Virus record (IMG/VR): IMGVR_UViG_3300028706_000553
Reading direction: 5' to 3' (one strand)
Source: a virus
Length of the DNA: 64,000 bases
A model generated the notes under the pieces. It saw nothing but the letters and a program-made list of their open reading frames with translations. It was not told where the DNA came from and made no database searches. Of this stretch, positions 1-36,426 are shown piece after piece. The position numbers and the translations under genes are program-made. Every line of letters starts with the position of its first letter. Positions within the stretch are counted from its first letter, which is position 1.

Positions 1-1
1 G

Positions 2-43
2 TTTAATAATGTGAAACAAAATATTTGGAAATATAATTTATGA
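2..43 (+). CDS. 3' end of an upstream gene (partial)
   Basis: Open frame from nt 2 (FNNVKQNIWKYNL) ends in TGA overlapping the ATG at 40 (ATGA), the coupling style seen throughout the array. Confidence 0.5.
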   Translation, partial: FNNVKQNIWKYNL

Positions 44-660
44 AAATATCTTTATATACTAGTGGTTCAACAGGAAAACAAAAACTAGTTACACATGCTG
101 AAAAGGATTTTTATAAAGCCGGTCATTGGTTAGTTGAAAAATGGGGAATAGGATACGATGATGTTATTATAAACCCTTTCCCAACATGGACTATTGCATG
201 CTGGGCGTTTTGTATAATACCTGCAAAAATTGCCCATTGTAATTTAGTAAATATTAAATTTGAACCTTTGAAATTCTGGGATGTTGTAGAAGAAGTTAAA
301 CCTACAATTCTTACATTAGCAATTGGAACATGGAGGACCCTTGTTAAAAGAAAAAAACCTAATCTTGAATTTGTTAGGAATTTTTCTACAGGCTCTGCGC
401 CAGTTACTGATGAAGATATATCACTAATGAAATCAACAGGCGCACAAAATGTTTGGAACATATATGGTTCTACAGAATGTATACCACCTGTAATGATATC
501 AAATAATAATATTTTTGATTTTCAAGAATCTCCATATTATTTGGAATACAAAGATAATTTATTTGTTGATGGTGTAAGCACAGGTGATACATTTGATCTT
601 AGTACAGGAAAATTTGAGAGTAGAATAAAACAGATAAAGGCGGATACATGGAAGTCTTAA
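40..660 (+). CDS. Minimal ANL-superfamily adenylating (AMP-binding) enzyme
   Basis: YTSGSTGKQK (A3 P-loop), TGSAP, NIYGSTE (A5), TGD (A7), SRIK (A8); only 206 aa. Confidence 0.75.
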   Translation: MKISLYTSGSTGKQKLVTHAEKDFYKAGHWLVEKWGIGYDDVIINPFPTWTIACWAFCIIPAKIAHCNLVNIKFEPLKFWDVVEEVKPTILTLAIGTWRTLVKRKKPNLEFVRNFSTGSAPVTDEDISLMKSTGAQNVWNIYGSTECIPPVMISNNNIFDFQESPYYLEYKDNLFVDGVSTGDTFDLSTGKFESRIKQIKADTWKS

Positions 661-1343
661 CAGAGAAAGAATATTATACATATCATACCGAAAATGCAGT
701 TCCTACGAAATTAAAAATAGATAGTGAATTGTTTGTAAAGGAAATATCCAGGTTTAATTTTATACCTTGGGGAGATGTTCACTTAGAATTTCCACGGTAT
801 GCGGTTCCTTTAATTAATGAAGATGGAATTTTTAAAAAAGATGATCCTGCGTGTTATCCATTAGATAGATGGAACTTTTTATTAGAATATCCCCAATTCA
901 AATATAAAGAATGGACAGATGACCACCTGGTTAAATGGAAAGAATGGAATTCTCGAAAAATTGATATGGATAGTATTGTAAATGAAAAACATTTTAAGGA
1001 ACCAACTGATGCATTAAAAATTTCCAGTCTATCTGTATTAAGTGAAATATTGCCTTATATGTATAGAAGCTGTATATTCAAATGGGATTATTTGGGACAT
1101 TTTAAAAAACATATAGATACTTGGCACCCAACACAGTGGATTAGGTTATGGGGGACCACTAATCCCGACGGCATGGTTTTGCGTTATGAAGAAAATGGTA
1201 CAATGGTAAGAAGGCATAATATAGAACAGGGTAGACTTTATCTACACGATTCAATTAAGCCTCACGAAGCGTTAGCCTTTACCGATGATGTATATCAATT
1301 CTTTATAGCATTAAATCCGCGTGCATTGGAGGTTTTATGGTAG
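648..1343 (+). CDS. Putative Fe(II)/2OG-dependent oxygenase (cupin fold)
   Basis: KKHIDT (HxD) and a distal DSIKPHEA His in a beta-rich C-terminal half. Confidence 0.55.
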   Translation: MEVLTEKEYYTYHTENAVPTKLKIDSELFVKEISRFNFIPWGDVHLEFPRYAVPLINEDGIFKKDDPACYPLDRWNFLLEYPQFKYKEWTDDHLVKWKEWNSRKIDMDSIVNEKHFKEPTDALKISSLSVLSEILPYMYRSCIFKWDYLGHFKKHIDTWHPTQWIRLWGTTNPDGMVLRYEENGTMVRRHNIEQGRLYLHDSIKPHEALAFTDDVYQFFIALNPRALEVLW

Positions 1344-2263
1344 AAAGATTAATAGATTCCAGTGAGCATTGGAAAAATGGAAACATTTCAGAAATTAAAG
1401 ATTTTGCAGATGAGTATGGATATCTTTTTTTCAAACAATGTTTAGATGTAGAAGAGAATTTAAACGTTAAACATCAAATAGACGAAGTTTTATTAAAATA
1501 TAATTATATTACTGAAACTGGGGATTTTAATACAGATTTTCAAGATATGTTTTATGCCGGCGGTGTGGGTCCAGATGAATATTTTACTGATATTAATTAT
1601 TTGGAAGATTTGCATTCATATATGCATCAAGATATGTTTTATGCTGTAATGAAAATAATTACCGGCAAAGATTGTATACCTATACCCAGATTAGTTCAAA
1701 GGACAATTTTTCCTAATAATCCCAGATTGACAACATTACCACATCAAGATCATTGGTATGCTGGAATGTCGAATGATTTGTGGACAATGTGGATTCCTTT
1801 TGGTGATGTGTCATCAGATATGGGTTCTATGAGAGTATATCCTAAATCTCAATTACTTGGGATTATACCTCCAGAAAAAAGATATTTTTCTGAAGAAAAC
1901 CAGATGATTGGATTTCACCCAACTAACTTTGAAGAATGGATTTCTGATAATTTTGAAGCAGGAGACTTTTTAATGTTCAATGTCCTCACTCAACATGGAA
2001 ACAATCATAATATATCATCTAAAGTCCGGTGCACCTTAGACGTTAGATACCAACCTACAGATGAGAGATTTTTTGATTTATTTTTTGATACACATTCTAA
2101 AGATTTGGAATGGAAAGATATATATTCAAATTTTAAAGATAAATCAAAATGTTTTTATTGGGACAGATATAATTTAAATATTGTTCAAGATGAATCGTTA
2201 TCCAGAGCTGTTGCTGAAAATCATGCAACTATAAAAATAGATTTCAATGATACATTAAAATGA
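1337..2263 (+). CDS. PhyH-family Fe(II)/2OG dioxygenase
   Basis: PHQDHWY (HxD), WTMWIPFGD, GDFLMFNVLTQHG, RCTLDVRY. Confidence 0.85.
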   Translation: MVERLIDSSEHWKNGNISEIKDFADEYGYLFFKQCLDVEENLNVKHQIDEVLLKYNYITETGDFNTDFQDMFYAGGVGPDEYFTDINYLEDLHSYMHQDMFYAVMKIITGKDCIPIPRLVQRTIFPNNPRLTTLPHQDHWYAGMSNDLWTMWIPFGDVSSDMGSMRVYPKSQLLGIIPPEKRYFSEENQMIGFHPTNFEEWISDNFEAGDFLMFNVLTQHGNNHNISSKVRCTLDVRYQPTDERFFDLFFDTHSKDLEWKDIYSNFKDKSKCFYWDRYNLNIVQDESLSRAVAENHATIKIDFNDTLK

Positions 2264-4083
2264 GCAAAAATATATACATGTGTCAAATAACCCCAGCTGA
2301 CGAAACTATAGGGGGGATGTCAAAATGTGAATGGGCATTTTTACCCTACACGGCAGGCGTATTATGGGAATATGCTCATCGTAATGAATTGATTAAAGAT
2401 AATTACGTTCTTAAAGACACTATTGTGATGAGGGACCCTTTAGATGATGTATTGAATAAACTAGATCAACCAGACATAGTGGCATTTTGTTGTTATGTTT
2501 GGAATACTAGCTTTCAATGTATTATAGCAGAAAAGATTAAAGAAAAATATCCTAATTGTCTTATTGTTGTTGGTGGCCCTCATATACCAGTTAAACAGGA
2601 TGAATGGTTTAAAGATCGGCCATATATTGATATTGCTGCTGTAAATGAAGGCGAAGAAATTTTTGAAAATATTTTATTAGAAGGAATTAATGATAATCCA
2701 GACTATTCTAAAATAAATGGAATCATATTAAATGATACTAATGGTATCCTGAGAACACCGAAGCATCCTAGAATGAAAGATCTTGATGTAATACCAAGTC
2801 CCTATCTTACTGGGTTTTTTGAAAAAATAATGAAAGAGTATCCTGATGTAAAATTCCATGCTACATGGGAATCTAATAGGGGGTGTCCCTTTAGATGTTC
2901 TTTTTGTGATTGGGGTGGGTTAACTTATCAAAAAGTTAAAATATTTGATATAAATAGATGTAAGGATGAAATTACATACATTGCAGATAAAAAAATGTTT
3001 GCAATGTGGATATCCGATGCAAATTTTGGTATATTTAAAAAAAGAGATGTTGAACTCGTACAACATTTAGTGGATACTTACAAAAAAGAAGGCTATCCTG
3101 AATTTTTTCCTACATTAGGGTATGCCAAGACACCTCCGAAAAGAAATGGCGTCGCTGAAATTCAGAGATTGATCAGGGAGGCATTACCTGATAATAAAAC
3201 ACCATCTCCTAGAGTAGCTATACAAAGTTTTGATCATGATACATTAACTAATATTAGACGTGATAATTTAAGCATAACTGATCTAGATCTAATAGTAGAT
3301 AATCAAAAGCAAAATGATGTACCTTTTGAAGTTGAACTTATAATTCCTTTACCGGGAATGACATATGATAGTTTTGTTGCTGATTGGGAATATTTTTTAC
3401 AAAATGATTCGTCTGATGGAATGATATATCCGGCCATGGTTCTTCCTAATTCCGAATTTGGTACGGCTGAATATCAAAAAAAATATAAAATCAAAGTTAG
3501 AAATATGCCGTACAATTATTTTGTAAGTAAGGATTTTTCTGATAGACGTATATATACCAGTTTAGACAAATATAAAAATGAACATTTGGAATATGCTGAT
3601 ATAATAGTAGAAACCTTTTCAATGTCAGAATCTAATGTTATTAAGTGTTGGATGTTTTATTGGATAATAGAATGTTTTTGGTATCACATTGTTTTAAAAG
3701 ATATTGTAAGTTATATAAGTAAATGTCTTAATATTCCGATAGTTAATGTTTTTAAGAAAATGCAAACATATATTCTCAATTCTTATGGAATCATAAATGA
3801 AAGATATTCTGAATTAGAGTCTTTAGTAAATAAAAGTTATTTTGCATATGATATGAAATCTCAAAAATTTCAAGATATTAAATTTTTCCAGGAACATCAT
3901 GAGTTTTTCTTTCATGATATCACAACATTTATTTCTGATGCGTGCAAAAATGATTTAAATGATGAACAATTCACGGAGACGATTGAAATGATAAAAAGAA
4001 AAGATGATTCGGATTTTTATTATCGAGATGTAACACAAAATATAATTGATGGGAGCGAAGTTGAATTAGGAGGAGCTCCATGA
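2260..4083 (+). CDS. B12-binding (class B) radical SAM protein
   Basis: N-terminal cobalamin-binding domain (DIVAFCCYVWN, IVVGGPH, NEGEEIF), then ESNRGCPFRCSFCDWG, DANFG, ELIIPLPG. Confidence 0.9.
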   Translation: MSKNIYMCQITPADETIGGMSKCEWAFLPYTAGVLWEYAHRNELIKDNYVLKDTIVMRDPLDDVLNKLDQPDIVAFCCYVWNTSFQCIIAEKIKEKYPNCLIVVGGPHIPVKQDEWFKDRPYIDIAAVNEGEEIFENILLEGINDNPDYSKINGIILNDTNGILRTPKHPRMKDLDVIPSPYLTGFFEKIMKEYPDVKFHATWESNRGCPFRCSFCDWGGLTYQKVKIFDINRCKDEITYIADKKMFAMWISDANFGIFKKRDVELVQHLVDTYKKEGYPEFFPTLGYAKTPPKRNGVAEIQRLIREALPDNKTPSPRVAIQSFDHDTLTNIRRDNLSITDLDLIVDNQKQNDVPFEVELIIPLPGMTYDSFVADWEYFLQNDSSDGMIYPAMVLPNSEFGTAEYQKKYKIKVRNMPYNYFVSKDFSDRRIYTSLDKYKNEHLEYADIIVETFSMSESNVIKCWMFYWIIECFWYHIVLKDIVSYISKCLNIPIVNVFKKMQTYILNSYGIINERYSELESLVNKSYFAYDMKSQKFQDIKFFQEHHEFFFHDITTFISDACKNDLNDEQFTETIEMIKRKDDSDFYYRDVTQNIIDGSEVELGGAP

Positions 4084-5108
4084 GTAATCAACAGGACGTA
4101 GAAAAACGAATTCAACATAATGCTACGGACAGTGCTGTAATGCACGGTTTATATGCAACTGTTCATAATGATTGGTCTGGTGAGATTAAAGATTATGATA
4201 TAACTCCATATACAGATTCAAGTGAGGCATTTCATGATGGTGATTATGACGAGATTAAAAAAAGAGCTAAGTCAGATGGTTACTTATATATAAAAGGAGC
4301 AGTGGATGTAGAAAGAAATATGTCTTTAAGGAATGATGTTTTGCGTATATGTGATGAACAAAATTTATTAATAAAAGATGATATTTTACGAGATGACATA
4401 GATGTTAATTCCGGTTCCGGCCCTCATGTATTTTGGGATAAGTGTGTTAAATTACAATCTTTTAATGAATATTTACATAAAGAACCTGCTGTACTTAAAT
4501 TATTTTCTCATATGTATGGCGAAGAATATGTTTTATTACCCAGAGCACTTTTTAGATTTTTTAAAAATAATGGTGAATTTTCTAAATTACATCAGGATTT
4601 TTGGTATTCCGGAGTTGCGAAAAATATGTGGACTGCATGGGTCCCATTAGGCGATATTCCTATGGATAAGGGTGTTATAGTAACTGCGAAGAATAGTCAT
4701 TTAAATATAGGCATTGTTCCAAATGAAGATAGATTTTATGACCAATCCAATCAGATAACTTATAAACTAAATAAAGATGATCATGAATGGTTGGCTAGCG
4801 ATTTTGAAAGTGGTGATGTATTATTCTTTAATTGTTTGTCTACTCATTTTAGTACAACCAATACAACGAATCATTTAAGACTATCCGCTGATTATAGATT
4901 TATACCCACATCTGATCCTATAGCAGATTATTTTTTTATACCTCATATGACCGAACATACGTGGGATGACATATATGAGGATTGGGACAGCACAGATTAT
5001 CAACGATATTGGTCCCACTTAGAATCAAAGTTTATATCTCCAGATGAAATAGACGACACAACAAACACTATTATGAGCCACACAACTCAATTTCAAAGCA
5101 ATATATGA
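4080..5108 (+). CDS. PhyH-family Fe(II)/2OG dioxygenase, paralogue of 1337-2263
   Basis: LHQDFWY, WTAWVPLGD, GDVLFFNCLSTH, RLSADYRF; shares the C-terminal W-x-DIY...YW tail with 1337-2263. Confidence 0.85.
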   Translation: MSNQQDVEKRIQHNATDSAVMHGLYATVHNDWSGEIKDYDITPYTDSSEAFHDGDYDEIKKRAKSDGYLYIKGAVDVERNMSLRNDVLRICDEQNLLIKDDILRDDIDVNSGSGPHVFWDKCVKLQSFNEYLHKEPAVLKLFSHMYGEEYVLLPRALFRFFKNNGEFSKLHQDFWYSGVAKNMWTAWVPLGDIPMDKGVIVTAKNSHLNIGIVPNEDRFYDQSNQITYKLNKDDHEWLASDFESGDVLFFNCLSTHFSTTNTTNHLRLSADYRFIPTSDPIADYFFIPHMTEHTWDDIYEDWDSTDYQRYWSHLESKFISPDEIDDTTNTIMSHTTQFQSNI

Positions 5109-6184
5109 AAACAAGTAAAATACCCGGATTAGGAAGATTTGGTCTATTCATAGACGATCTACATTATAAAGATATTACTCCTGAATTATGGAATGAGATT
5201 GCTACTTTATATTTGGATAATTTAGTAGTTATAATACGCGATTGTGATTTTACTTTAGCACAATTCGAAGAGCTAACCCTAAAATGGGGTGATGGCACTA
5301 GTACTTTTTTGGTTAACATTACCAAAAAATATGGGTTCACAGATGTTTTTCAATTTGCTGATAATATGGCAGAATTAGATTTAACTGATGAAGAGAAGCA
5401 ATGGTTCAGGGCAGTGGATAAGGTTAAGGCTACTGATATAGATCCAGAAAAAGCTGCAGCAGTTAGAGTAACATCTAGAAGAGATGAGAATGGTGATTTT
5501 ACAGGAATGTTTCCCGACGGAGAACTGCTTTGGCATGCTAATGAATCTGGTAATTTTTTATTTGCACCCAGCGTAGCTTTTTATGGATTTGCAGATGTCG
5601 TGGGATCTTCTACTGGATTTTTGACAACGACCGATTGGTATGAAGAACAAACAGAATCTTTCAGAAGTGAGCTCGATGATATGATTCTTGTTCATGATTT
5701 TACTAAAAATAGATTTACTCCTGAATTATCTGAAGATGAACAACAAGTAATAATTAAAAATAATATGTGTCCTGAAAGATGTGAATTGCCTATGGTTATG
5801 CAATCCCCAGGTGGAATAAAAGGTTTACATTATACTATTACCAGTACCGTTTCCGGAATTAAAGGTGCAACTGATTCAGAGTTTAAAAAAATAACCGATA
5901 GTATAAATGAAACATTATTAGTAGATAAATATATTTACGATCATTGGTATACTTCTAGAGATTTATGTTTTTTTGATAATGCGATTTCTCTACATAGGCG
6001 CCAAGGCGATTTATCTAAGGGTAGATTAGGATATAGGATTCAACATAATTTAAGATATATACAAAGAGTTGATAGTCTATATTTAAAAGAACCATGGAAA
6101 TCACAATATATAAAAGAAATTAATGAGATGAACGATATTTTAGGATTTAACGATGCAAGATTCCCAGCGTTCAATTCTTATTAA
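5105..6184 (+). CDS. TauD/TfdA-like dioxygenase
   Basis: LVVIIRD, LLWHANES, FFDNAISLHRR, RLGYRI follow the TauD layout. Confidence 0.7.
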   Translation: MKTSKIPGLGRFGLFIDDLHYKDITPELWNEIATLYLDNLVVIIRDCDFTLAQFEELTLKWGDGTSTFLVNITKKYGFTDVFQFADNMAELDLTDEEKQWFRAVDKVKATDIDPEKAAAVRVTSRRDENGDFTGMFPDGELLWHANESGNFLFAPSVAFYGFADVVGSSTGFLTTTDWYEEQTESFRSELDDMILVHDFTKNRFTPELSEDEQQVIIKNNMCPERCELPMVMQSPGGIKGLHYTITSTVSGIKGATDSEFKKITDSINETLLVDKYIYDHWYTSRDLCFFDNAISLHRRQGDLSKGRLGYRIQHNLRYIQRVDSLYLKEPWKSQYIKEINEMNDILGFNDARFPAFNSY

Positions 6185-6200
6185 ATAAAAGGGTAGTTAA

Positions 6201-7064
6201 ATGATACAAGATAACGGATGGTATAGAAACGAAAGCGATACAGCACTCAGAGATAAACTAGCTGATGATTTTCCCATTGGAACTAACGATGCGTCTTTCA
6301 GTTTTCATCAGAAAATATTAAATGATTTAAGTTTATCTAATACAAGAGTCTCAATAGACATTGGAGCATATACTGGGGCCTGGACATCGGTTTTGAGTGA
6401 TAATTTTAATGCAGTTTATTCATTTGAGCTTTCTGCCGATAATTGTGAATGCATTAACAAAAATACGGAAAGTAAAACCGGCATAACCTTACATAATGTT
6501 ATTATTTCACATCGGACTAGTAAGACTGTTACTCTGTCGGATGGTAAAGAATATGTCGTAGAAATATTTTTGAAAGATGGGGCACAGGTCAAACAGGGTG
6601 AAGTTGGTATCATGGAATTAACTGATGCTGCCGACTATAGTTCTTCCAGATTTGTCAGAGCCGATAGACCAACGGTTGAGGCAGTGTTTTCCGCAGAAAC
6701 TGATAGGTCTTCAGATATTACAATGAAAGAAATTGATGAATACAGTTTTACCGATGTTGATTTAATTAATTTGCATACTAATGGTAGTGAATATCTTGCT
6801 ATTATGGGTGCTATTGATACCATAGCAGCATGCAGACCTGTTATAATATATCAAGCATATGAAGCTGAAATGAGTTATTACGGTCATCAATCAGATACTT
6901 GTAATTTTGATGAAAGTGCCGGAGGTATTAGTAAGGCAGATCGCGAGACAATACAGACTCCAGAAACGATTGACGAATTTGTAACCAGCTTAGGATATTC
7001 TATTACAACAAACACATCATTTGATAAATGGGGCATGACATATAGGATAGCTGTCCCCGATTAA
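6201..7064 (+). CDS. FkbM-family SAM-dependent methyltransferase (divergent)
   Basis: IDIGAYTG motif I, VYSFE, and GSEYLAIMGAIDTI..CRPVI matching the FkbM C-terminal pattern. Confidence 0.7.
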   Translation: MIQDNGWYRNESDTALRDKLADDFPIGTNDASFSFHQKILNDLSLSNTRVSIDIGAYTGAWTSVLSDNFNAVYSFELSADNCECINKNTESKTGITLHNVIISHRTSKTVTLSDGKEYVVEIFLKDGAQVKQGEVGIMELTDAADYSSSRFVRADRPTVEAVFSAETDRSSDITMKEIDEYSFTDVDLINLHTNGSEYLAIMGAIDTIAACRPVIIYQAYEAEMSYYGHQSDTCNFDESAGGISKADRETIQTPETIDEFVTSLGYSITTNTSFDKWGMTYRIAVPD

Positions 7065-7065
7065 T

Positions 7066-8870: not shown

Positions 8871-8878
8871 TATAAATA
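8871..8878 (+). promoter_or_regulatory. T4-type late promoter TATAAATA
   Basis: Exact consensus in an intergenic gap, directly after the upstream TAA. Confidence 0.7.
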
Positions 8879-8918
8879 TTGTATTCACTAAACTCAAATG
8901 AAGAAAAAGGATAAAAAA

Positions 8919-9131
8919 ATGCAAAAGGTATTAGTTTGCATTATTATGGTAACATGGATGGTTGTAGGATGTGAAGCAGTAAGACAAGCAGGATGTTATG
9001 GATATTGGGTAGGCGCCGATGGTCATCAGAGAGGCACTAGATGGTCTAATCAAAATAACACTAGACCTTATCGACAATGTGTAGAAAAAGAAGTACCACA
9101 TAAAAATACAGAAAAGAGACCCTATGGTTAA
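8919..9131 (+). CDS. Small putative lipoprotein
   Basis: AAGGA RBS before ATG 8919 (alternative start 8898); hydrophobic stretch ending in lipobox VVGC. Confidence 0.6.
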   Translation: MQKVLVCIIMVTWMVVGCEAVRQAGCYGYWVGADGHQRGTRWSNQNNTRPYRQCVEKEVPHKNTEKRPYG

Positions 9132-9345: not shown

Positions 9346-9354
9346 TAATTATAT

Positions 9355-12438: not shown

Positions 12439-12440
12439 AA

Positions 12441-17729: not shown

Positions 17730-17734
17730 ATATT

Positions 17735-20177: not shown

Positions 20178-20189
20178 TAAAAACATATT

Positions 20190-24184: not shown

Positions 24185-24185
24185 T

Positions 24186-29619: not shown

Positions 29620-30652
29620 TCCCGATCAAATAAAACATATTCATTTAGAACCCACCCAAAGATGTCAAGCCGCATGTCCAATGTGCGATAGGACAAATAA
29701 TCCTCGTATAAAAAATGCTGAATTGACCTTAGATAATTTCATGCATATGGTGGATATTGATTTTGTGAAGCAATTAAATTCATTATTAATGTGTGGTAAT
29801 CACGGTGATCCTATTATCTCATTACATGCTCTAGATATTTTAAGATACCTTAGAGTCAACAACCCAGATATACACCTGCAAGTTACTACAAATGGTGGTG
29901 CCAGAGACGAAGACTTTTGGAGAGAATTAGCTTTCATTTTAGGTAGTAGAGGTAAAGTACAATTTAGTGTTGATGGCCTGGAAGATACAAATCATTTATA
30001 TAGAGTAAATGTTAATTGGAAAAAAATTGAAGAAGCAATGGATGTATTTACTCAAGCAGGTGGAAAAGGTGTTTGGGTTTATTTAATATTTGAACATAAT
30101 GAACATCAAGTTGAAGAAGCAGAACAAATGGCCAAGTTATTTGGATTAGACTTTATAAGAAAAAAGACTGGAAGGTGGGTACAGAGCTATAAAGGTAAGA
30201 AGATTGATAAAAAGATAACCAACAAAGGGAATGAGATTAAACCAGCTACAAAACCAGAGCATCAGAATCAAAGCGTAAATAAATATGATAGATTGGTTAA
30301 GACTCATGGTTCCTTTCAAGAGTATTTAGATCAAACATCCATCAAATGCAAATCCCTTATAACTAATGAAATATTTATCAGTGCTGAAGGTCTTGTAACT
30401 CCTTGCTGTTGGACTCATGGACGATTTTATAAAGCATATCAAGAGATTGGTGAAAATCAGATTTGGTCTTTCGTAGATGACGTGAAAAATATAAATGCTC
30501 TTCATACTCCGTTACGAGAAATCATTAAAGGAAACTTTTTCGCACAGCTGGAAAAGAGCTGGAATCTCCCTTCATGTTCTGATGGGAAATCTGTTGTATG
30601 TGCTGAGAAATGCGGTTCAGGGTTTGATGCTTTTAGAGATCAGTGGAAATGA
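29612..30652 (+). CDS. Radical SAM/SPASM protein
   Basis: CQAACPMC; CGNHGDP; TNGG; FSVDGLE; TPCC; CAEKC. Confidence 0.92.
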   Translation: MYNPDQIKHIHLEPTQRCQAACPMCDRTNNPRIKNAELTLDNFMHMVDIDFVKQLNSLLMCGNHGDPIISLHALDILRYLRVNNPDIHLQVTTNGGARDEDFWRELAFILGSRGKVQFSVDGLEDTNHLYRVNVNWKKIEEAMDVFTQAGGKGVWVYLIFEHNEHQVEEAEQMAKLFGLDFIRKKTGRWVQSYKGKKIDKKITNKGNEIKPATKPEHQNQSVNKYDRLVKTHGSFQEYLDQTSIKCKSLITNEIFISAEGLVTPCCWTHGRFYKAYQEIGENQIWSFVDDVKNINALHTPLREIIKGNFFAQLEKSWNLPSCSDGKSVVCAEKCGSGFDAFRDQWK

Positions 30653-31392
30653 CAAATTTTTATTGTTTGAAATGGGGAACAAAATATAATCGCTTTTATG
30701 TTAATAGACTGTTTAATTCTTTAAAGGAGCATTATGACGATCCTTTTAGTTTTACTTGTCTTACTGATAATACTGTGGGTCTTGATAAAGATATTATCGT
30801 AGACCCAATACCAACTGATTTTAGTGAGTTTCCAAGAACACAAATATTTACATCTGAGAAGATGTGTTATTTTAATAGTTATAAACACATCTCGGGACCG
30901 AAGGCTTGGTTTGACTTAGATATATTAATACAAAATAATATAACGGAACTTATTAATAAAAAGAAAAATAAGGTAACATATATTTGGAACTATTGGAGAA
31001 ACGAAGAAGCACATAAAACTAATTATGGTTGGATGACTACTCCAATTAATTCTTCTTTTGTTGCTTGGCAAGATGATTTAGGTTTTGATATGTATGAAAG
31101 ATTAGTTAAAAATAAAGAGAAGGCATTTTTTACTTATCCATCATATGACAAATATCTATTCTATCAAGAACATAGAAAAGGTAATTTAAATTATTGGGAA
31201 CCAGGAATAGTATATAATTATAATATAGGAGTTAAATATCCTGATGATTTAAACCCGACAAAATATAGATCTGATTATAAAGTCTGTTTATTTAATACAT
31301 CACACAAAGCATGGGCGAAACCTAATGAAACACATATAGAGTTACATCAGGCAGAAGGCTGGGCATATGACAAATGGATTAGTTATGAATGA
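30643..31392 (+). CDS. Glycosyltransferase-like protein (GT-A type)
   Basis: CLKWGTKY, FTCLTD, FDLDILI (DxD), INSSFVAW. Confidence 0.65.
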   Translation: MEMTNFYCLKWGTKYNRFYVNRLFNSLKEHYDDPFSFTCLTDNTVGLDKDIIVDPIPTDFSEFPRTQIFTSEKMCYFNSYKHISGPKAWFDLDILIQNNITELINKKKNKVTYIWNYWRNEEAHKTNYGWMTTPINSSFVAWQDDLGFDMYERLVKNKEKAFFTYPSYDKYLFYQEHRKGNLNYWEPGIVYNYNIGVKYPDDLNPTKYRSDYKVCLFNTSHKAWAKPNETHIELHQAEGWAYDKWISYE

Positions 31393-31960
31393 GTTTGATT
31401 CGTTTGCTTCTGATATCTTAAAAAATTCGGATTCAAATGCATATGATATTTTGTGGTATACTGTTCCAGAAAATAGACGACATAATGTAGGTGCGGCTAA
31501 TAACCGATATAATAAAACCTTAAATGATAAGATCCATTCTTTAATTACTCAATATTTTGACGAAGACGATTTAAACATGGTATGTTCTTGGTATATGAAT
31601 TATCATGTTGACAAAATAGAAAAATTAGGTTATAATATAACTTATTATGATTCAGATCCTTATGTGTGCGAAGATTGTGATCTTATAAGTGACAATATAC
31701 ATAACGTAGATGTTATATTTGATAGAGTGCGATTTAAAGGTCCTATCATACATAAATTTTGTGAAGATACTTATCCTATTGGTAAAGTTCATAAGGGAAA
31801 ATATATATTAGCAGGTAGTAATAAAAAAAGATTGCATATATGTAACCCTATTGAATCCTCTCAGCAATTAATAGAACAGAATGAAATCAAGTCCGTTATC
31901 TATGAAGAAGAATACGAATTTCAAAAAGTTAAATATTCAATAGTAGTAGGATGTTCATAA
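31385..31960 (+). CDS. Degenerate methyltransferase-like protein, paralogue of the next two genes
   Basis: CSWY, YYDSD, FCED, LAGSN, CNPI...SIVVG align with GSWFG, YDID, SCEH, LQSNN, NCV, FMVIG of the next two ORFs; alternative start 31367. Confidence 0.5.
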   Translation: MNEFDSFASDILKNSDSNAYDILWYTVPENRRHNVGAANNRYNKTLNDKIHSLITQYFDEDDLNMVCSWYMNYHVDKIEKLGYNITYYDSDPYVCEDCDLISDNIHNVDVIFDRVRFKGPIIHKFCEDTYPIGKVHKGKYILAGSNKKRLHICNPIESSQQLIEQNEIKSVIYEEEYEFQKVKYSIVVGCS

Positions 31961-32769
31961 AAAATTTCAAAAGTGCTGAGATTAATTTAAAAATTCTTGA
32001 AAGAGATAGACGTGCCAATATAGGTGAATGGGCTAAAAAGAATTCTATTTTAGAAAAACATAGGCGCAGATTAGATAGTAAAAGAAGACAACTCGATCAA
32101 GAAAAAATTGATGATACTGGTTTATATGAAAAGAATAAAATAGAATTTGAGAATACGATGGAATGGTCTCCTTATATGAAGGTTAAAAGATTCTTAGATG
32201 AATCTTATCCTGAATACGCTTCTAGTCTTTTAGATTCAATATCAGATGGTCAATATGAATCTAAAAAATGGATGAGTGAAGTTTTAAAATCAGGTCAATT
32301 AGGTAATAAAGATCCTTTAAAAATTGAAATAGCTGGATCCTGGTTTGGATGGCCAATGATTGAGTTATTAGAAGATGCTATTGTAAAAATAGAAAGTATT
32401 GATTTATATGATATAGATGAAGTATGCCATGAAGTAGTTAGAAAATATATATATCATTTCAAACCGAAATATCATATAAATCAATATCATGATTTTTTTG
32501 AAAGAGGTGATAAAAGGATCCGGCATTTACTTATTTGCACTTCTTGTGAGCATATGCCAGATATAAGTGAGATGAAAGAATATTATAAAGACACACCCAA
32601 ACCAATTCTTGCACTTCAAAGTAATAATTATGTTGAATTGGCAGAACATGAAAACTGTGTTAATAGCTATTCTGAGTTGGCTGAGAAGAATGAAATAAAA
32701 GATATAAGGTATCAAGGTGAAAGAGACTTTGGTTATTATAAAAGGTTTATGGTTATAGGAACATGGTAA
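31951..32769 (+). CDS. Class I SAM methyltransferase-like protein
   Basis: SKKWM, IAGSWFG (Gly-rich motif I), LYDID (acidic motif II), TSCEHM, LQSNNY. Confidence 0.6.
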   Translation: MFIKNFKSAEINLKILERDRRANIGEWAKKNSILEKHRRRLDSKRRQLDQEKIDDTGLYEKNKIEFENTMEWSPYMKVKRFLDESYPEYASSLLDSISDGQYESKKWMSEVLKSGQLGNKDPLKIEIAGSWFGWPMIELLEDAIVKIESIDLYDIDEVCHEVVRKYIYHFKPKYHINQYHDFFERGDKRIRHLLICTSCEHMPDISEMKEYYKDTPKPILALQSNNYVELAEHENCVNSYSELAEKNEIKDIRYQGERDFGYYKRFMVIGTW

Positions 32770-33428
32770 AAGAATTTCGCGATTCAAATTATTATAAAGT
32801 ATTTAAGTTTGTAAGAAACAATTTTCCAGAATATGAAGATAGTTGGTGTGATTCGATTTCTTTCGATCAGTATGAATCAAAAAAATGGTTATGTGATGTT
32901 CTAGATAATTTAAAAATAACGGAAACAGATAATGTCCGAAAATATACTAAAGATGCAGGTGTTACAGGATGGTTTTATCCTCTCTTAATAGATATAGTCG
33001 GGTCATGGTTTGGTTGGCCGTTAATAGAAATGATTGACCAGTTTTCTAAAGGAAGAATTACACGAATTGATTGTTATGATTTTGATGAAACCTGTCAAAA
33101 GGTAATGGCTCAATATAAAAATATGTTTGACCCGAAATATGATATAGTACAACATGATGATTATTTTGAAAGAAAAGAAGTAAGAAGAAGGCACTTGGTT
33201 ATTTGTACTTCTTGTGAACATATGGGAAATTTTAATAGAAGATATTATAAGGGTAATCCTTTTGTTTGTTTACAATCTAATAATTATTTTGATTTACCGG
33301 AGCATACAAATTGTGTAGAAAATGTGGATGAATTAATAAAGAAAAATAAATTGAAAAAGATATGGTATAAGGGTGAAAAAGATTTTGGCACTTATAAACG
33401 TTTTATGACAATTGGACAGTGGCAATGA
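32763..33428 (+). CDS. Class I SAM methyltransferase-like protein, tandem paralogue
   Basis: SKKWL, IVGSWFG, CYDFD, TSCEHM, LQSNNY, YKRFMTIG shared with 31951-32769. Confidence 0.6.
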   Translation: MVKEFRDSNYYKVFKFVRNNFPEYEDSWCDSISFDQYESKKWLCDVLDNLKITETDNVRKYTKDAGVTGWFYPLLIDIVGSWFGWPLIEMIDQFSKGRITRIDCYDFDETCQKVMAQYKNMFDPKYDIVQHDDYFERKEVRRRHLVICTSCEHMGNFNRRYYKGNPFVCLQSNNYFDLPEHTNCVENVDELIKKNKLKKIWYKGEKDFGTYKRFMTIGQWQ

Positions 33429-34060
33429 AACGGGCTGTTGCATGCATCTGCGTTGGAGATAAGTATAATCTTACTGATGTTAAAATATTAGAACAAATGG
33501 TATTCCAAAATACCACCTATGATATAAACTTTAGAGTATTTGATGAACCAGTATTACCTAAATGGTGGACTAAGGTTTTATATCATTCACCAGTAATAGA
33601 ACCATTTGAAGAAGATGTTGTTTTAGCTTTTGATTTAGATGTAGTTATAAAGGGAAGTATAGATCCTTTGTTTGATTGGGTAGAACAACAAGATTATCTA
33701 TGCGCAGTATGGTGTAGATGGAGAGAGCATATGGATAATTTTGAAGAACAAAGAGATAAAGATATATTTTGTACTCCTTACAATTCTTCAATATTAGGAT
33801 GGAAACCAGATACTTGTTTGAAGATTTGGGAAGAATTTGTTTTTGAAGATATAGAAAAATATAATGGATTCGATACTTATCTTTGGATGAAGAGATTGGA
33901 TCCTATTAGAATACCGGATCATTTTTATTATTCAGCACATTTTGCACAGTATCAAGAATTGGATTATCCGGTGGCCCTTTTTAATAAAGGACAAAACATT
34001 GGTTTAGAAAAACATGAAATAATATCTAAGGTACCATGGGTGAAAAAATACAGGAATTAA
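33419..34060 (+). CDS. Glycosyltransferase-like protein, paralogue of 30643-31392
   Basis: CVGDKY, FDLDVVI (DxD), YNSSILGW. Confidence 0.65.
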   Translation: MAMKRAVACICVGDKYNLTDVKILEQMVFQNTTYDINFRVFDEPVLPKWWTKVLYHSPVIEPFEEDVVLAFDLDVVIKGSIDPLFDWVEQQDYLCAVWCRWREHMDNFEEQRDKDIFCTPYNSSILGWKPDTCLKIWEEFVFEDIEKYNGFDTYLWMKRLDPIRIPDHFYYSAHFAQYQELDYPVALFNKGQNIGLEKHEIISKVPWVKKYRN

Positions 34061-34803
34061 TATTCTCTATAAACCACGGAGGGTTAGGTGATAGGTTTTG
34101 TATGCTCTCAAATATTTTACATACTATGCAGCACTCCCCTGCGGGCTCAGTGAAATTAAAGGCTTATTTGTATCCACAGGATGAAGCAGACAAAAAATTA
34201 AGAAATAATTTAAAATTTAATAATTTGTTTGAAGTAATAGATTTTTTACATCTTGAAAGGCCGAACAATCCATTTTTAGAAGATAGCGTTGAATTACTTA
34301 ATGAACATAGCGATCACTTTGAAGGATTTATGAAAAATGTTGAGAATGAAATGTATCGATCTTTTAATGATACATTACTTAGAGATGCAAAATATTGGCC
34401 TGTGAGTTATGAAAAATTCGCTAAGAAAAAATATATTACGTATCTACTTTATCACACAGAAAAACTTCATTTTGGTCAGAGTCATAAAATTCTTACTAAT
34501 GAACAGATAGACGTTTTTAAAAATATTATCAGTAATATGACAGAACTTTCTGATAAATTGGAGTTTGTTGAATTGGAGGATTATAATTATGAAAAAAATA
34601 TTGAGTTATTATCTAAGAGTTATTTTCATATAGGGTCAGAAGGAATGTGGACCCACTTATCCAGAGCAATGAATGTTTATACTATAGCGTATTCACTACT
34701 TGATGAATTTATTGGAGAATTTAATCAACAAGGTCATTTTTGTTCGAAAGAGTTTTTAGAGTGTTTGGAAAAAATGAAAGAGAAAAGCAGAGAATTAATA
34801 TGA
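34036..34803 (+). CDS. Possible GT-B (GT9-like) glycosyltransferase
   Basis: N-terminal GGLGD and C-terminal HIGSEGMWTHLSRAM resemble the GT9 GLGD and IGxDSGxxHLAxA motifs. Confidence 0.4.
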   Translation: MGEKIQELIFSINHGGLGDRFCMLSNILHTMQHSPAGSVKLKAYLYPQDEADKKLRNNLKFNNLFEVIDFLHLERPNNPFLEDSVELLNEHSDHFEGFMKNVENEMYRSFNDTLLRDAKYWPVSYEKFAKKKYITYLLYHTEKLHFGQSHKILTNEQIDVFKNIISNMTELSDKLEFVELEDYNYEKNIELLSKSYFHIGSEGMWTHLSRAMNVYTIAYSLLDEFIGEFNQQGHFCSKEFLECLEKMKEKSRELI

Positions 34804-35606
34804 TACATGTTTATTCAGATAGTTTTGGTGAAACACATGGTGCTGGTACTTGGCCTGCAAAGCTTGAATTTATTAGAGAAGAGGAAGTAAAAATTAACGG
34901 GTCTGGAGGGACCGGTCCAAATTGGAGCTTAAGAAAATTAATTAATGATTTGGAAACTTCAAAGATAAAAAATAAAGATAGTGTAATTGTTTTACTGTCC
35001 GATCAGAAGAGAATGGAATTTCCTTGGTTGGAAAATGATTGGTTAGCAGATGGTATTTTTTTATTAGCAGAAGATATTCCAGAAGAAATAGTAAAACACC
35101 TTAAAGGAGGAACACCAGAATTTGACAAATATAGATATAAGAAATATGAATATGAAATAAGAACAATTGCACAATCATTAGGTCCCATGTTTTTATATGA
35201 GAACGTCAAAAATATAACATTTTTACATTTACTTTCTCAACAGTTTAGTGAAATAAATTTTTTGGTATTTACTTGTTTTAGTCTCAATCATTTTACTTCA
35301 AGATATAAAAATTTTAATATTACATCTACAAAATTATTATATGATTTGGATTTTGAAGAATTAAATTCATCTAATTTTTATTATGTATCAACTCCGGTTT
35401 CATATATGGCCGGCACATATGATGGTGATGAAATGTTGAATAATCATATGACTGTAGAACAAAACGAAAAATTTGGTATCTTTTGTAATGACATATTAAA
35501 TAATAATACACCCGATACTAGCTGGTTTGCTTATAAGGCATATGATGATCCTTATGCAGAACATCAAGGATCAGAGCCGCCAGCACCACTTTTCATTTAC
35601 GATTGA
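34800..35606 (+). CDS. SGNH/GDSL-hydrolase-like protein
   Basis: IHVYSDSF (GDS-like block I), GSGGTG, NNHMT; ATG 34800 overlaps the upstream TGA. Confidence 0.55.
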   Translation: MIHVYSDSFGETHGAGTWPAKLEFIREEEVKINGSGGTGPNWSLRKLINDLETSKIKNKDSVIVLLSDQKRMEFPWLENDWLADGIFLLAEDIPEEIVKHLKGGTPEFDKYRYKKYEYEIRTIAQSLGPMFLYENVKNITFLHLLSQQFSEINFLVFTCFSLNHFTSRYKNFNITSTKLLYDLDFEELNSSNFYYVSTPVSYMAGTYDGDEMLNNHMTVEQNEKFGIFCNDILNNNTPDTSWFAYKAYDDPYAEHQGSEPPAPLFIYD

Positions 35607-35607
35607 T

Positions 35608-36426
35608 ATGACAATACACATTTATGGTGATAGTTTTGGAGTAATTTGTAAACATGATAAAACATGGCCGGCTGAACTATCAAGATTAAAAAAAGAAGAA
35701 ATTGATGTTAAAGCAGAATCGGGTAGTGGACCTAATTTTTCTTTAGATTTATTAATTGCAGATTTAGAAAATAGTTCCATTAAAGATGATGATACAATAG
35801 TTATTCTGTTATCCGATCAGAAGAGAATGGAGTTTCCTTTTGTAAGGAATAATGAACATGTTACAGGTGTTTTTAGAATAGCTGAGGATAATAAAGATTG
35901 GAAACATCCATTTGAGCCAGATAATAAAGATGATCCTTGGCCTGGAGTACAGAATCAGTCCTACTTAAATGATTATAAAAAGGAAACAAAAATTATAGCA
36001 CAAACATTAGGGCCTATGTTTTTATATGAGAATGTTAAGAATATATCTTTTTTACATTTGTTATCTTTAAATTTTAAAAAGATAAGATTTGTGGTATTTA
36101 CTTGTTTCAGTTTAGATCATTATCTAGGAACTTATAAAAACTTCAATATAAATTCAACTGATTTTTTACACAAAATAAAATTTGAATCTTTAGATAGTGA
36201 AAATTTTGATTATGTAAAAATTCCTGTAGGACATATTGTAGGCCTTGATGATACTGGTATTCAATTAGATAATCACATGACACCAGATAAAAATTTAAAA
36301 TTTGGTAAATTAGTATATGATATAATAATGAAAAATGAGATTGATAGATCCTGGTTTAATACACATCCCTATGATGATCCTTTTGAATACCAGTATCCAT
36401 TAGAACCCATTTTCATATACGATTAA
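35608..36426 (+). CDS. SGNH/GDSL-hydrolase-like protein, tandem duplicate
   Basis: IHIYGDSF, DNHMT; shares LSDQKRMEFP and LGPMFLYENVKNI with 34800-35606, also at DNA level. Confidence 0.6.
   Translation: MTIHIYGDSFGVICKHDKTWPAELSRLKKEEIDVKAESGSGPNFSLDLLIADLENSSIKDDDTIVILLSDQKRMEFPFVRNNEHVTGVFRIAEDNKDWKHPFEPDNKDDPWPGVQNQSYLNDYKKETKIIAQTLGPMFLYENVKNISFLHLLSLNFKKIRFVVFTCFSLDHYLGTYKNFNINSTDFLHKIKFESLDSENFDYVKIPVGHIVGLDDTGIQLDNHMTPDKNLKFGKLVYDIIMKNEIDRSWFNTHPYDDPFEYQYPLEPIFIYD

Follow-up and report, generated by a model that had tools for sequence, protein, structure and literature searches.

Gene content of the array

The DNA analysed here (64,000 nucleotides, termed the window) stems from an uncultured marine T4-like phage and contains a biosynthetic array which makes up about 29% of the phage genome sequence. 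The sequence-only reading had described an array of at least 36 kb running off the left edge. It actually starts 6.9 kb left of the window edge and spans 43.4 kb (genome coordinates 27,729-71,095). The whole array consists of 51 co-oriented genes, 19 of which code for radical SAM (rSAM) proteins. As that reading had noted, most genes overlap: this applies to 40 of the 50 junctions, and a further 7 have a gap of at most 20 nt. Positions 1-36426 of the window contain 41 plus-strand ORFs of at least 80 aa and two small ones. The 6.9-kb stretch to the left of the window holds an NAD epimerase, one twitch rSAM, two halogenase-like genes and one B12 rSAM. The features within the window are given below; G001 is a complete 177-kb phage relative.

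40-660, +, short AMP-binding (adenylate-forming) protein, 206 aa (Pfam AMP-binding, E 6.6e-20)
648-1343, +, conserved protein without assigned function, 231 aa (no Pfam match; 88% identity in G001)
1337-2263, +, PhyH-family Fe/2OG oxygenase (Pfam PhyH, E 1.4e-11)
2260-4083, +, cobalamin-dependent (class B) rSAM methylase, TokK/CysS-like (CX3CX2C at residue 209, B12-binding domain)
4080-5108, +, PhyH-family Fe/2OG oxygenase (Pfam PhyH, E 7.4e-12)
5105-6184, +, TauD/TfdA-family Fe/2OG oxygenase (Pfam TauD, E 3.9e-11)
6201-7064, +, FkbM-type methyltransferase (Pfam Methyltransf_21, E 8.5e-8)
7066-8133, +, divergent rSAM of the N-terminal-twitch type (CX3CX2C at residue 106; NF033640, 124.8 bits, below the cut-off of 170)
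8130-8870, +, aldo/keto reductase (Pfam, E 1.6e-22)
8871-8878, +, TATAAATA, T4-type late-promoter-like motif in the sole sizeable intergenic gap
8898-9345, +, two small hydrophobic, lipoprotein-like ORFs (77, 73 aa)
9355-10467, +, N-terminal-twitch rSAM (NF033640, 207 bits, above cut-off)
10452-11742, +, three conserved proteins (161, 176, 109 aa; without Pfam or PHROG function; also carried by G001 and G003)
11767-12438, +, nitroreductase-family flavoprotein (Pfam, E 3.2e-9)
12441-13616, +, N-terminal-twitch rSAM (NF033640, about 174.6-176.7 bits)
13601-14383, +, protein without assigned function, first gene of the cassette 13601-18751
14370-15182, +, PLP aminotransferase-like protein, class I/II, short (Pfam Aminotran_1_2, E 1.3e-10)
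15175-16706, +, two short rSAMs with a C-terminal SPASM/twitch domain (264, 251 aa; CX3CX2C at residues 32 and 14)
16642-17001, +, Cys-rich protein, 119 aa (7 Cys; no family match)
17001-17729, +, short rSAM, family B, 242 aa (CX3CX2C at residue 24)
17735-18751, +, amidinotransferase of the StrB1/AGAT/HsvA family (1bwd, E 3.2e-14; 5wpi, E 8e-11; Atlas lead)
18735-20177, +, N-terminal-twitch rSAM, best-conserved member (NF033640, 408 bits)
20190-21002, +, PP-loop ATPase with QueC-like C-terminus (SGGADS at residue 72; PHROG QueC-like, E 1e-7)
20905-22143, +, rSAM, family E (Pfam, E 5.4e-10)
22118-23122 and 23258-24184, +, two rSAM genes, family B (Pfam, E 3.4e-8 and 1.3e-12)
24186-25589 and 25586-26608, +, two N-terminal-twitch rSAM genes (202 and 220 bits)
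26593-27507 and 27482-28519, +, two rSAM genes, family E (Pfam, E 8e-13 and 1.8e-14)
28507-29619, +, N-terminal-twitch rSAM (NF033640, 280 bits)
29612-30652, +, rSAM, family B (Pfam, E 8.9e-11)
30643-31392, +, glycosyltransferase of GT-A fold, retaining type, with DLD motif (model pLDDT 92)
31367-33428, +, three related proteins (197, 272, 221 aa; hhalign 100% and 95.6% among themselves)
33419-34060, +, second GT-A glycosyltransferase (hhalign to the 30643-31392 family 99.7%, E 7e-27)
34036-34803, +, protein without assigned function, 255 aa (no matches; in G004, absent from G001)
34740-36426, +, two SGNH/GDSL-like paralogues (288, 299 aa; invariant GDS, G-x-N and His)

The radical SAM proteins

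The CX3CX2C motif was found in 17 plus-strand ORFs, all within 1-30652, which is the number counted previously; the 19 rSAM genes of the full array appear intact and belong to five families. Sixteen of the 17 matched Pfam Radical_SAM; 12 of these matches exceed the gathering score and 4 fall short of it. The remaining ORF, 2260-4083, carries a B12-binding domain and matched TokK (7kdx, E 1.7e-65) and CysS (E 2.4e-49); with the KedN5 subfamily it scored 226 bits, under the cut-off of 700. The array contains two such TokK-like B12 rSAM methylases, one of which is interrupted in the present assembly by a change of reading frame.

Eight array rSAMs resemble the N-terminal-twitch family NCBIfam NF033640, seven of them above the cut-off of 170 bits. 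The divergent 7066-8133 aligns with the remaining seven, and all eight retain the cluster, GGE and N-terminal Cys columns in the alignment. In 9355-10467 a SPASM-like match covers residues 3-69, ahead of the core. In a tree the eight paralogues split into no fewer than 7 lineages. For most of them the partner is an orthologue from the distant phage L018, where 24186-25589 and 25586-26608 each have a separate one. The twitch rSAMs are old paralogues. The best-conserved member, 18735-20177, shares 45-54% identity with homologues on bacterial and MAG contigs and groups with a gene of Micromonospora carbonacea, with weak support (SH-aLRT 83).

The short rSAM pair at 15175-16706 matched SPASM with E 4e-9 and 1.5e-12; mutual identity is 37%. 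In family B, 17001-17729 is related to 22118-23122, 23258-24184 and 29612-30652, the last of which shares 36-47% identity with its bacterial and MAG counterparts. In the pair at 22118-24184 the cluster motif begins at residues 18-21 and thus leaves no room for an N-terminal peptide-recognition domain. In family E, 20905-22143 has 31-34% homologues at Bdellovibrionales loci, and 27482-28519 is 54-58% identical to genes of Bdellovibrionales and MAG contigs.

Partner enzymes and glycosyltransferases

The adenylating enzyme, amidinotransferase, PLP enzyme, PP-loop protein and reductases of the sequence-only reading were recovered by Pfam, structure-sequence and PHROG matches, and its glycosyltransferase and SGNH-like genes correspond to two GT-A and two SGNH-like proteins. 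From its five Fe/2OG oxygenases three were verified, two PhyH and one TauD; its nucleosidase-like protein was not found. The AMP-binding match of 40-660 is limited to profile positions 168-330, and the G001 copy is of equal length and 81% identical. No profile link connected 648-1343 to other array families. The oxygenase 1337-2263, a paralogue of 4080-5108, has PtlH as nearest solved structure (E 8.5e-6). The amidinotransferase has kept its catalytic His and, near the C-terminus, its catalytic Cys, both in alignment with StrB1; its 36% homologues adjoin twitch rSAMs in Bdellovibrionia. The C-terminus of the PP-loop protein aligned with the phage's own QueC (hhalign 96%). The proteins at 31367-33428 are probably methyltransferase-like, an assignment that is an Atlas lead only. 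The SGNH-like pair had fold matches to TesA, carbohydrate esterases and PatB at a low TM of about 0.33. The array enzymes include no membrane protein; the ORFs at 8898-9345 code for the sole hydrophobic proteins of the array. One of them has a homologue elsewhere in G001, the other has none, and both are probably passengers and not pathway enzymes.

The model of the glycosyltransferase 30643-31392 matched LARGE1, LgtC, glycogenin and alpha-3-GalT best among solved structures (probability 1.0). The DxD motif of GT-A transferases binds metal; D91 and D93 are invariant here, and in 33419-34060 the DLD motif at 72-74 is conserved. Among 77 other viral loci with the 30643-31392 family, 58 have at least one rSAM within 10 kb and 32 at least five.

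A late promoter inside the array had been taken to favour virion or surface decoration. This argument is weak or unsupported. The TATAAATA copy at 8871 is located 20 nt ahead of an ORF, preceding the two lipoprotein-like ORFs, and another lies about 75 nt ahead of the first array gene. The window contains 8 copies versus 15.8 expected by chance, the 177-kb relative does not have them at matching positions, and a perfect sigma-70 consensus is present within the array.

The array resides in a phage genome

The array is located between rnh and gp32 within the replication and nucleotide-metabolism module, with FolE, QueC, a dCTP-deaminase-like gene, ThyX and a class II RNR as neighbours. T4-like core genes on the same contig, claimed before, were identified as gp32, gp59 and RNase H. 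Upstream (4 kb) lies a heptose-type block of SIS, GHMP kinase, cytidylyltransferase, GT1 and pyruvyl-transferase. The array is joined on its right to the same FolE/QueC/gp59/gp32 genes in five independent assemblies from different samples, G001 is syntenic on both flanks, and GC is uniform (0.29-0.35) in array and phage genes alike.

Near-identical contigs were binned in MAGs labelled 'Acidimicrobiaceae' and 'Mycoplasmataceae', and homologous arrays are present in Bdellovibrionia chromosomes; however, the MAG contigs are mis-binned phage (one 'bacterial' MAG has three permuted tmRNA genes), the bacterial arrays are at most 36-58% identical and differ in gene order, and the probability of an assembly artefact or of a host operon misjoined to phage DNA is, with the shared junctions and even GC, negligible. 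A chimeric join and an intact host operon were the two findings named in advance as speaking against a dedicated viral pathway; both checks were negative. The island is a dedicated, phage-borne biosynthetic one, neither a chimera nor a captured intact host operon. Related phages exchange cassettes and keep a core of about 16 genes, among them the two GT-A transferases. Cassette swapping around a kept core indicates that the product probably varies between strains.

Possible products

We favour, with slightly better than even confidence, a cytoplasmic phage-carried pathway in which a sugar decoration or glycan is built and subsequently undergoes extensive radical-based editing. Among the product options proposed from the sequence a glycan or sugar fits best because of the GT-A transferases, the amidinotransferase, the epimerase, the heptose block and the AviX12-type family. 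The StrB1-type amidinotransferase adjoins the PLP enzyme, and this was also counted in favour, as were the NAD epimerase, the TokK/CysS-like methylases, and a carbamoyltransferase and a CMP-sugar-type cytidylyltransferase among the Bdellovibrionales neighbours. As acceptor a virion or infected-cell surface glycoconjugate ranks first; DNA and protein targets are improbable.

The pathway would start with the synthesis of an activated sugar, perhaps through the isomerase, kinase and nucleotidyltransferase encoded upstream, and the GT-A enzymes would then move this sugar onto an acceptor. Each twitch/SPASM rSAM would abstract hydrogen from one particular sugar C-H bond, leading to epimerisation (AviX12-like), oxidation to a ketone (BtrN-like) or oxygen removal. 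The extra cassette of this phage may convert the ketone to an amine by transamination, and amidination of this amine would give a guanidino group. The B12 enzymes could add C-methyl groups and the oxygenases hydroxylate; methyltransferases and SGNH proteins may add or trim small groups.

Several points count against a radically edited glycan. To our knowledge, AviX12 is the sole member of these rSAM families with a known reaction. There are 19 rSAMs versus only 2-3 transferases, and we know of no characterised glycan locus with such a ratio. The PhyH enzymes of the phage have their closest match in a terpenoid hydroxylase and not among the orthosomycin oxygenases. Sugar pathways do not typically include genes of the halogenase-like, adenylating and nitroreductase kinds. 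The array contains no flippase, polymerase or initiating transferase, and about ten of its genes are without assignable function. In the homologous Bdellovibrionia arrays GT2 or Wzx genes are not nearby; these arrays are accompanied by Asp/Asn-hydroxylase-family genes, which could act on proteins or lipids.

The enzyme set also resembles a natural-product cluster. Possibly a free small molecule is made in the infected cell which acts on host or competitors and is not surface-attached, e.g. a secondary metabolite of the aminoglycoside, orthosomycin or nucleoside type, or a compound resembling a cofactor. TokK/CysS-type methylases, two flavin-halogenase-like genes, the adenylating enzyme, a PhyH protein closest to PtlH, the StrB1-type amidinotransferase, the nitroreductase and the aldo/keto reductase would agree with this, as would the solubility of all enzymes, the lack of lipid-carrier machinery and the fact that the closest characterised setting of the twitch family is an antibiotic cluster. 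Yet the array has no exporter, self-resistance gene or scaffold synthase (PKS, NRPS or cyclitol synthase), the conserved core includes two GT-A transferases, and a lytic phage has little time to gain from a diffusible product. We consider such a molecule unlikely.

SPASM/twitch rSAMs are best known as peptide maturases. The rSAMs might thus modify a peptide or protein, by RiPP-like maturation or amino-acid hypermodification of virion proteins, with the sugar enzymes as side players. There are weak NCBIfam matches to such families, among solved structures the twitch family matches SkfB best by sequence, a related phage array includes a Peptidase_S58 gene, and the Asp/Asn-hydroxylase-family genes of the bacterial arrays would fit. 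However, a precursor peptide was looked for in the array and not found; no small ORF is conserved between the phage studied and G001 and none is situated beside the bacterial copies. RiPP-recognition or PqqD-like domains were not detected, the N-termini being twitch or directly cluster motif, and the array lacks a leader peptidase or transporter. This makes a peptide target very improbable.

Lastly, the island might hypermodify phage DNA, e.g. by a base-attached edited sugar or other group, to escape host nucleases. Its location in the replication and nucleotide-metabolism module next to the 7-deazaguanine precursor genes FolE and QueC, with the dCTP-deaminase-like gene, ThyX and class II RNR around it, is in line with this, as are the second QueC-like PP-loop protein within the array and the cytoplasmic nature of all enzymes. 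DNA-decorating phage glycosyltransferases are known (bioRxiv 10.1101/2023.12.21.572611). But neither a TGT/DpdA base-exchange enzyme nor a ThyA-type pyrimidine hydroxymethylase was detected in this phage or in the complete G001, and no DNA-binding, glycosylase or kinase domain was found in the array. DNA as the target has a very slim chance.

Comparison with known systems

In the NF033640 family all eight phage proteins have the auxiliary-cluster Cys domain before the rSAM core. The family is without assigned function; here eight old paralogues are combined in one phage operon with three other rSAM families. The single NF033640 gene of M. carbonacea, which aligned with g71 over its full length, sits in an everninomicin-type cluster next to a halogenase, two PhyH, an EryCIII-type glycosyltransferase, methyltransferases, a SpoU rRNA methylase and an NAD epimerase. 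AviX12 has been reported as an rSAM epimerase acting on an avilamycin sugar (PMC8234114). Going by its gene context, the M. carbonacea gene is the probable counterpart of AviX12; the phage rSAMs would be tied to AviX12 by membership in one family and similar gene surroundings, with about 27% identity. The phage array and orthosomycin clusters have a twitch rSAM, PhyH oxygenases, a flavin halogenase, an NAD epimerase, methyltransferases and glycosyltransferases in common. However, orthosomycin clusters have one rSAM each versus 19, direct sequence similarity is confined to the rSAM (about 27% identity), and the polyketide part, resistance gene and exporter have no match in the phage array.

The cassette 13601-18751 is reminiscent of streptomycin biosynthesis by its StrB1 homologue with catalytic residues and its PLP aminotransferase-like protein. 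The two rSAMs of about 250 aa with a C-terminal auxiliary-cluster domain resemble BtrN, the rSAM dehydrogenase of butirosin, in their architecture. Together this corresponds to aminocyclitol gene logic, from C-OH via C=O and C-NH2 to guanidino. Different from aminocyclitol clusters, the cassette lacks a kinase as well as a synthase for inositol or 2-deoxy-scyllo-inosose, and it is absent from G001, the closest complete relative. The similarity to TokK and CysS is strong and full-length, comprising B12-binding domain and rSAM core, whereas their known substrates are a carbapenem (TokK) and an aromatic ether (CysS).

The array had been considered the strongest candidate for an undescribed system. 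In part this must be revised because rSAM richness in marine T4-like phages is already known since 2017 and 2020: TARA_ERS488813_N000010, a marine T4-like genome, has 12 rSAM genes (PMC5332604), and pelagimyophages carry rSAM cassettes (PMC7029224). Many rSAM genes, Fe-S supply genes (IscU in G001) and cassette-type gain and loss are shared features. Yet in these reports rSAM genes were counted and no pathway was proposed, the number here is higher (19), and the array, flanked by rnh and gp32, is placed outside the tail-fibre 'host recognition cluster'. The glycosyltransferase (LPS/glycan) islands of cyano- and pelagimyophages, in which GT8-like GT-A transferases are common (PMC7029224), are likewise hypervariable sugar-enzyme islands from the identical phage supergroup. 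There, transferases and nucleotide-sugar enzymes dominate, whereas rSAM enzymes dominate the array described here.

Results

Phage residence of the array

The array is phage DNA. G001, a complete relative from IMG/VR (177,419 bp, CheckV 100%), is collinear with G000, the phage under study, through the replication genes at left, the entire array and the SNase, FolE, QueC, gp59 and gp32 genes at right. Protein identity is 44-97% across the collinear region. In three further contigs from other samples the right junction recurs, and GC content is even over the array region. This bears out the sequence-only reading, which had the array sharing a contig with T4-like core genes. Array genes are also deposited under bacterial names. 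The same phage type, at 74-99% identity, is represented by an 80-kb contig assigned to an 'Acidimicrobiaceae' MAG. Two MAG-deposited contigs, L023 (PBYV01000081.1, 'Acidimicrobiaceae' MAG) and L024 (JABSQC010000110.1, 'Mycoplasmataceae' MAG), carry array genes at 70-99% identity; both are almost certainly phage DNA placed in bacterial bins. Directly after the array, and just downstream of a copy of TATAAATA at window position 36427, lies an RNA gene:

36441-36662, plus strand: circularly permuted (two-piece) tmRNA gene (Rfam RF04321, 99.7 bits; ARAGORN tag ADNTDYFPAQVALAA)

Similar permuted tmRNA genes are present in three contigs of one 'Rickettsiales' MAG and in a Bacteroidota MAG contig of 2.9 kb, suggesting that phage DNA was mis-binned. 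Because the 'Rickettsiales' MAG, which has a similar array, holds three such genes, it must contain mis-binned phage contigs.

A nucleotide search of cultured phages gave no match, and none of these phages is close. The gp32 protein shares 56% identity with Synechococcus myophages, and one tail protein shares 26% with Pelagibacter phage Mosig. A typical cyanophage was rejected since psbA is absent from the genome. The tmRNA did not assign a host; in 401 genomes searched it had only T-arm-sized matches of about 30 nt. The genome further encodes a class II (B12-dependent) ribonucleotide reductase left of the window (L001:16313-18361), besides two B12 radical SAM (rSAM) genes. Therefore, the phage needs cobalamin from its host, which speaks against a host without synthesis or import of B12. 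An intact gene for the Fe-S scaffold IscU is present in G001 (C1:139543-139914) and was not found in the 150.8 kb of G000. The tail, baseplate and fiber genes (window 43738-64000 and on to genome position of about 124,650; genome 78-125 kb) have almost no G001 homologue at E 1e-5, unlike the replication, array and capsid/terminase regions, which are 60-92% identical. The tail module seems to have been replaced as a whole.

Extent, layout and timing

The window corresponds to bases 34,670-98,669 of a 150,810-bp IMG/VR virus record, which is estimated to be about 90% complete. The earlier statement that the array runs off the left edge was correct, and the genome to the left now supplies its beginning, a gene for an NAD epimerase/dehydratase at genome position 27,729. 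Next in order are a further twitch rSAM, a pair of Trp-halogenase-family genes and the second B12 rSAM. The island thus spans 43.4 kb, about 29% of the 150.8-kb record, and comprises 51 plus-strand genes, 19 of them for rSAM proteins; 40 of its 50 gene junctions overlap. From window position 40 to 36,426 all non-nested ORFs of at least 80 aa are on the plus strand. In G000 the left B12 rSAM gene (L002:13589-15713, i.e. genome 32588-34712, left of the window) is split into ORFs of 550 and 164 aa, which overlap in different frames; the G001 counterpart is a single 732-aa ORF. The split results from a frameshift or from an error in the assembly. A separate block is located 4 kb further left, past a T4-type rnh. 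It codes for a polysaccharide-pyruvyl-transferase-like protein, a GT1 transferase, a cytidylyltransferase, a GHMP kinase and a SIS isomerase, a set that follows the gene logic of NDP-heptose synthesis.

The motif TATAAATA is rarer than chance (8 copies vs 15.8 expected in the window, 1 vs 4.8 in the left locus). Several copies are just ahead of gene starts; among these, one is about 75 nt upstream of the first array gene, a second is at 8871 and a third immediately precedes the tmRNA. A late promoter inside the array had been taken to favor virion or surface decoration. This argument is weak: the array-internal motifs of G001 are at other positions than in G000, a perfect sigma-70 consensus is inside the array, and no convincing plus-strand terminator interrupting the array was found. 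The sigma-70 sites and the genes behind the second of them are:

31608-31636, plus strand: perfect 12/12 sigma-70 consensus (TTGACA, 17 nt spacer, TATAAT), inside the array ahead of 31951
38104-38132, plus strand: perfect 12/12 sigma-70 consensus (TTGACA, 17 nt spacer, TATAAT), in the gap before FolE
38164-41316, plus strand: GTP cyclohydrolase I (FolE) and QueC (7-deazaguanine precursor genes), with three unnamed neighbors

Radical SAM genes

The count of 17 proteins with CX3CX2C stands, as 17 window ORFs have the motif. Of these, 16 match PF04055, the rSAM superfamily, 12 with scores above the gathering score and four with lower ones. The 17th has a B12-binding domain and matches the solved methylase TokK with E 1.7e-65.

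By BLAST the rSAM genes of the island group into five families. Family A (eight members) is of the N-terminal-twitch type NCBIfam NF033640 (N_Twi_rSAM), with auxiliary-cluster cysteines ahead of the core. The curated cut-off of NF033640 is a whole-protein score of 170 bits; seven of the eight score 173-408 bits and the twitch rSAM at 7066-8133 stays below with 124.8 bits. SPASM matches are located at residues 3-106, on the N-terminal side of the core, and the cluster, GGE, C8, C67 and C70 are invariant in all eight. The four members of family B carry the cluster motif right at the protein start. Family C consists of two proteins of about 250 aa whose SPASM/twitch domain is C-terminal, and the B12 pair forms family D. 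An N-terminal B12-binding domain (PF02310), the rSAM core and the similarity to TokK mark a class B (cobalamin) rSAM methyltransferase; with 226 bits vs a cut-off of 700 bits it does not belong to the KedN5 subfamily NF033712. The three members of family E are without a specific relative, and a sequence search of the PDB had no match for families B and E.

Did family A arise by recent tandem expansion? This was rejected. In a phylogeny that includes phage and bacterial members, branches with good support force the eight copies into at least seven separate lineages, and most copies pair with the orthologue of a distant phage contig, not with each other. Therefore, they are old specialized paralogues. 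Searching 1.84 billion representative proteins with a profile gave 6,679 family members at E 1e-30 or better, and the NF033640-type family has more than 6,000 clusters at 50% identity. Many of the best-scoring twitch relatives (P0313-P0341) are 790-1400 aa long with two or three tandem copies; thus, natural fusions of twitch rSAMs are common. In the window a 119-aa protein with seven cysteines (16642-17001, plus strand) is encoded directly ahead of a 242-aa rSAM which has no auxiliary-cluster domain of its own. It might supply this domain in trans.

Partner enzymes and the conserved core

Among the partners we verified two PhyH and one TauD oxygenase, an FkbM methyltransferase, an aldo/keto reductase, a nitroreductase, a PLP aminotransferase-like protein and a short AMP-binding protein. 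The amidinotransferase is related to StrB1, HsvA and AGAT (1bwd, E 3.2e-14); its catalytic His and C-terminal Cys (...HC...) align with StrB1/AGAT. A PP-loop protein has an SGGADS motif and a QueC-like C-terminus. Two genes code for GT-A glycosyltransferases:

30643-31392, plus strand: GT-A glycosyltransferase (model pLDDT 92; best solved matches LARGE1, LgtC, glycogenin and alpha-3-GalT; DLD invariant)
33419-34060, plus strand: second GT-A transferase, homologue of the first by profile comparison, with the same DLD motif

The top solved structural matches of the first are all GT8 or GT6 enzymes, and the model, with its Rossmann-like GT-A fold, predicts a retaining, GT8/GT6-like transferase. 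Three proteins encoded between the two form one family and are possibly methyltransferases. The last two array genes are SGNH-like: the GDS block I, Gly/Asn blocks and the C-terminal His are invariant in 24 sequences, and the fold matches, weak as they are (TM about 0.33, E 2e-4), are all SGNH enzymes.

About ten array genes have no assigned function. A sequence search of the PDB gave no match for the ORFs at 34740-35606, 30643-31392, 20190-21002 and 13601-14383. In PHROGs, ten proteins of unknown function were searched and none was named beyond the QueC-like one; profile comparison did not link nine unassigned array proteins to the annotated array families.

All close relatives keep the region 18735-34060 (about 16 genes), with ten rSAMs, the PP-loop protein, both GT-A transferases and the three-protein family encoded between them. 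This core is also present in a more distant phage contig, in a similar, partly rearranged order. The left part of the array varies between relatives, e.g. the cassette 13601-18751 (an unassigned protein, the PLP enzyme, two short rSAMs, the Cys-rich protein, an rSAM and the amidinotransferase) is absent from G001. The GT-A family is present in at least 302 IMG/VR stretches. At 58 of 77 examined GT-A loci at least one rSAM of family A, B or E is within 10 kb, and at 32 of 77 there are five or more. Therefore, the module is widespread in phages.

Bacterial relatives

NF033640 is absent from 14 model genomes and strongly expanded in Bdellovibrionota (10-20 copies per genome, often clustered). Five further array genes have homologues that cluster with it there, at 29-58% identity. 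One such array adjoins rpoD and dnaG and hence is chromosomal. Neighbors of the Bdellovibrionota arrays include genes for a carbamoyltransferase, a CMP-sugar-type cytidylyltransferase, an amidinotransferase homologue and Asp/Asn-hydroxylase-family proteins; GT2 and Wzx genes were not found near the Bdellovibrionia arrays.

Discussion

What does the island make? The enzyme families are established; from these we infer every reaction. On balance we favor a cytoplasmic pathway for an extensively re-worked sugar. A sugar would be activated and then transferred by the GT-A enzymes. The rSAM enzymes would carry out epimerization, oxidation to ketones and deoxygenation, the B12 enzymes C-methylation and the oxygenases hydroxylation. 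The PLP enzyme together with the amidinotransferase would turn a ketone into a guanidino group, and methyltransferases and SGNH proteins would cap the product. No membrane span is predicted in any array enzyme, and a surface polysaccharide system of the Wzx/Wzy or ABC type does not apply: a membrane-spanning initiating transferase, a flippase/transporter and a polymerase were not found in the array.

The natural-product flavor of the left half of the array would suit a free metabolite, yet the array is without a scaffold synthase, an exporter or a resistance gene, and we consider such a product unlikely. That the enzymes modify a peptide is very improbable: no precursor was found, no small ORF is conserved in G001, no small precursor-like ORF is located beside the bacterial copies, and Pfam detects no RiPP-recognition (PqqD-like) domain in any array protein. 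About as improbable is a DNA target. The location beside nucleotide-metabolism genes and FolE/QueC, which are just downstream and outside the array, would suit it, yet neither G000 nor G001 has a detectable ThyA-type hydroxymethylase or TGT/DpdA, where a divergent DpdA could escape a TGT-family match.

Possibly, the N-terminal-twitch rSAMs and their partner families constitute a large, unrecognized class of enzymes that edit C-H bonds of carbohydrates (as epimerases, dehydrogenases or deoxygenases). Phages would carry them as swappable cassettes and thereby give virions or infected cells strain-specific, chemically exotic sugar coats. If true, this would be a radical-chemistry route to glycan diversity without a characterized viral precedent. 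A lytic phage which devotes about 29% of its genome to oxygen-sensitive iron-sulfur enzymes must draw a strong benefit from the product. The island also shows that marine phages rely on host iron, SAM and cobalamin, and it bears on how they alter recognition surfaces. With the core module found in hundreds of viral contigs, and with thousands of uncharacterized proteins in the main enzyme family, a single identified reaction would annotate much viral and Bdellovibrionota dark matter and could bring to light new sugar chemistry for glycoengineering.

Comparison with known systems

Earlier work described a marine T4-like genome that carries 12 rSAM genes besides genes for Fe-S carriers (Nishimura et al., 2017; PMC5332604), and rSAM cassettes in pelagimyophages (Zaragoza-Solas et al., 2020; PMC7029224). 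Neither put forward a pathway. We believe that the full extent and gene count of the island, proof of phage residence on both flanks, the ancient paralogues, the amidination cassette and the link to an everninomicin-type cluster are new here.

This last link is the most useful anchor among the bacterial relatives. Micromonospora carbonacea has a single NF033640 gene (343 bits), and its product aligns over the full length with g71, a twitch rSAM of the array, at 27% identity. Its neighbors code for a flavin halogenase, two PhyH proteins, an EryCIII-type glycosyltransferase, methyltransferases, a SpoU rRNA methylase and an NAD epimerase, the make-up of an everninomicin cluster. The phage halogenase-like and PhyH proteins have no direct similarity to their counterparts at this locus. 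Among the orthosomycins, the avilamycin pathway is the sister of that for everninomicin and has its own rSAM, AviX12. Judged by gene context, the M. carbonacea gene would be the counterpart of AviX12, which, as reported in PMC8234114 with reference to Boll 2006, epimerizes a sugar of the oligosaccharide.
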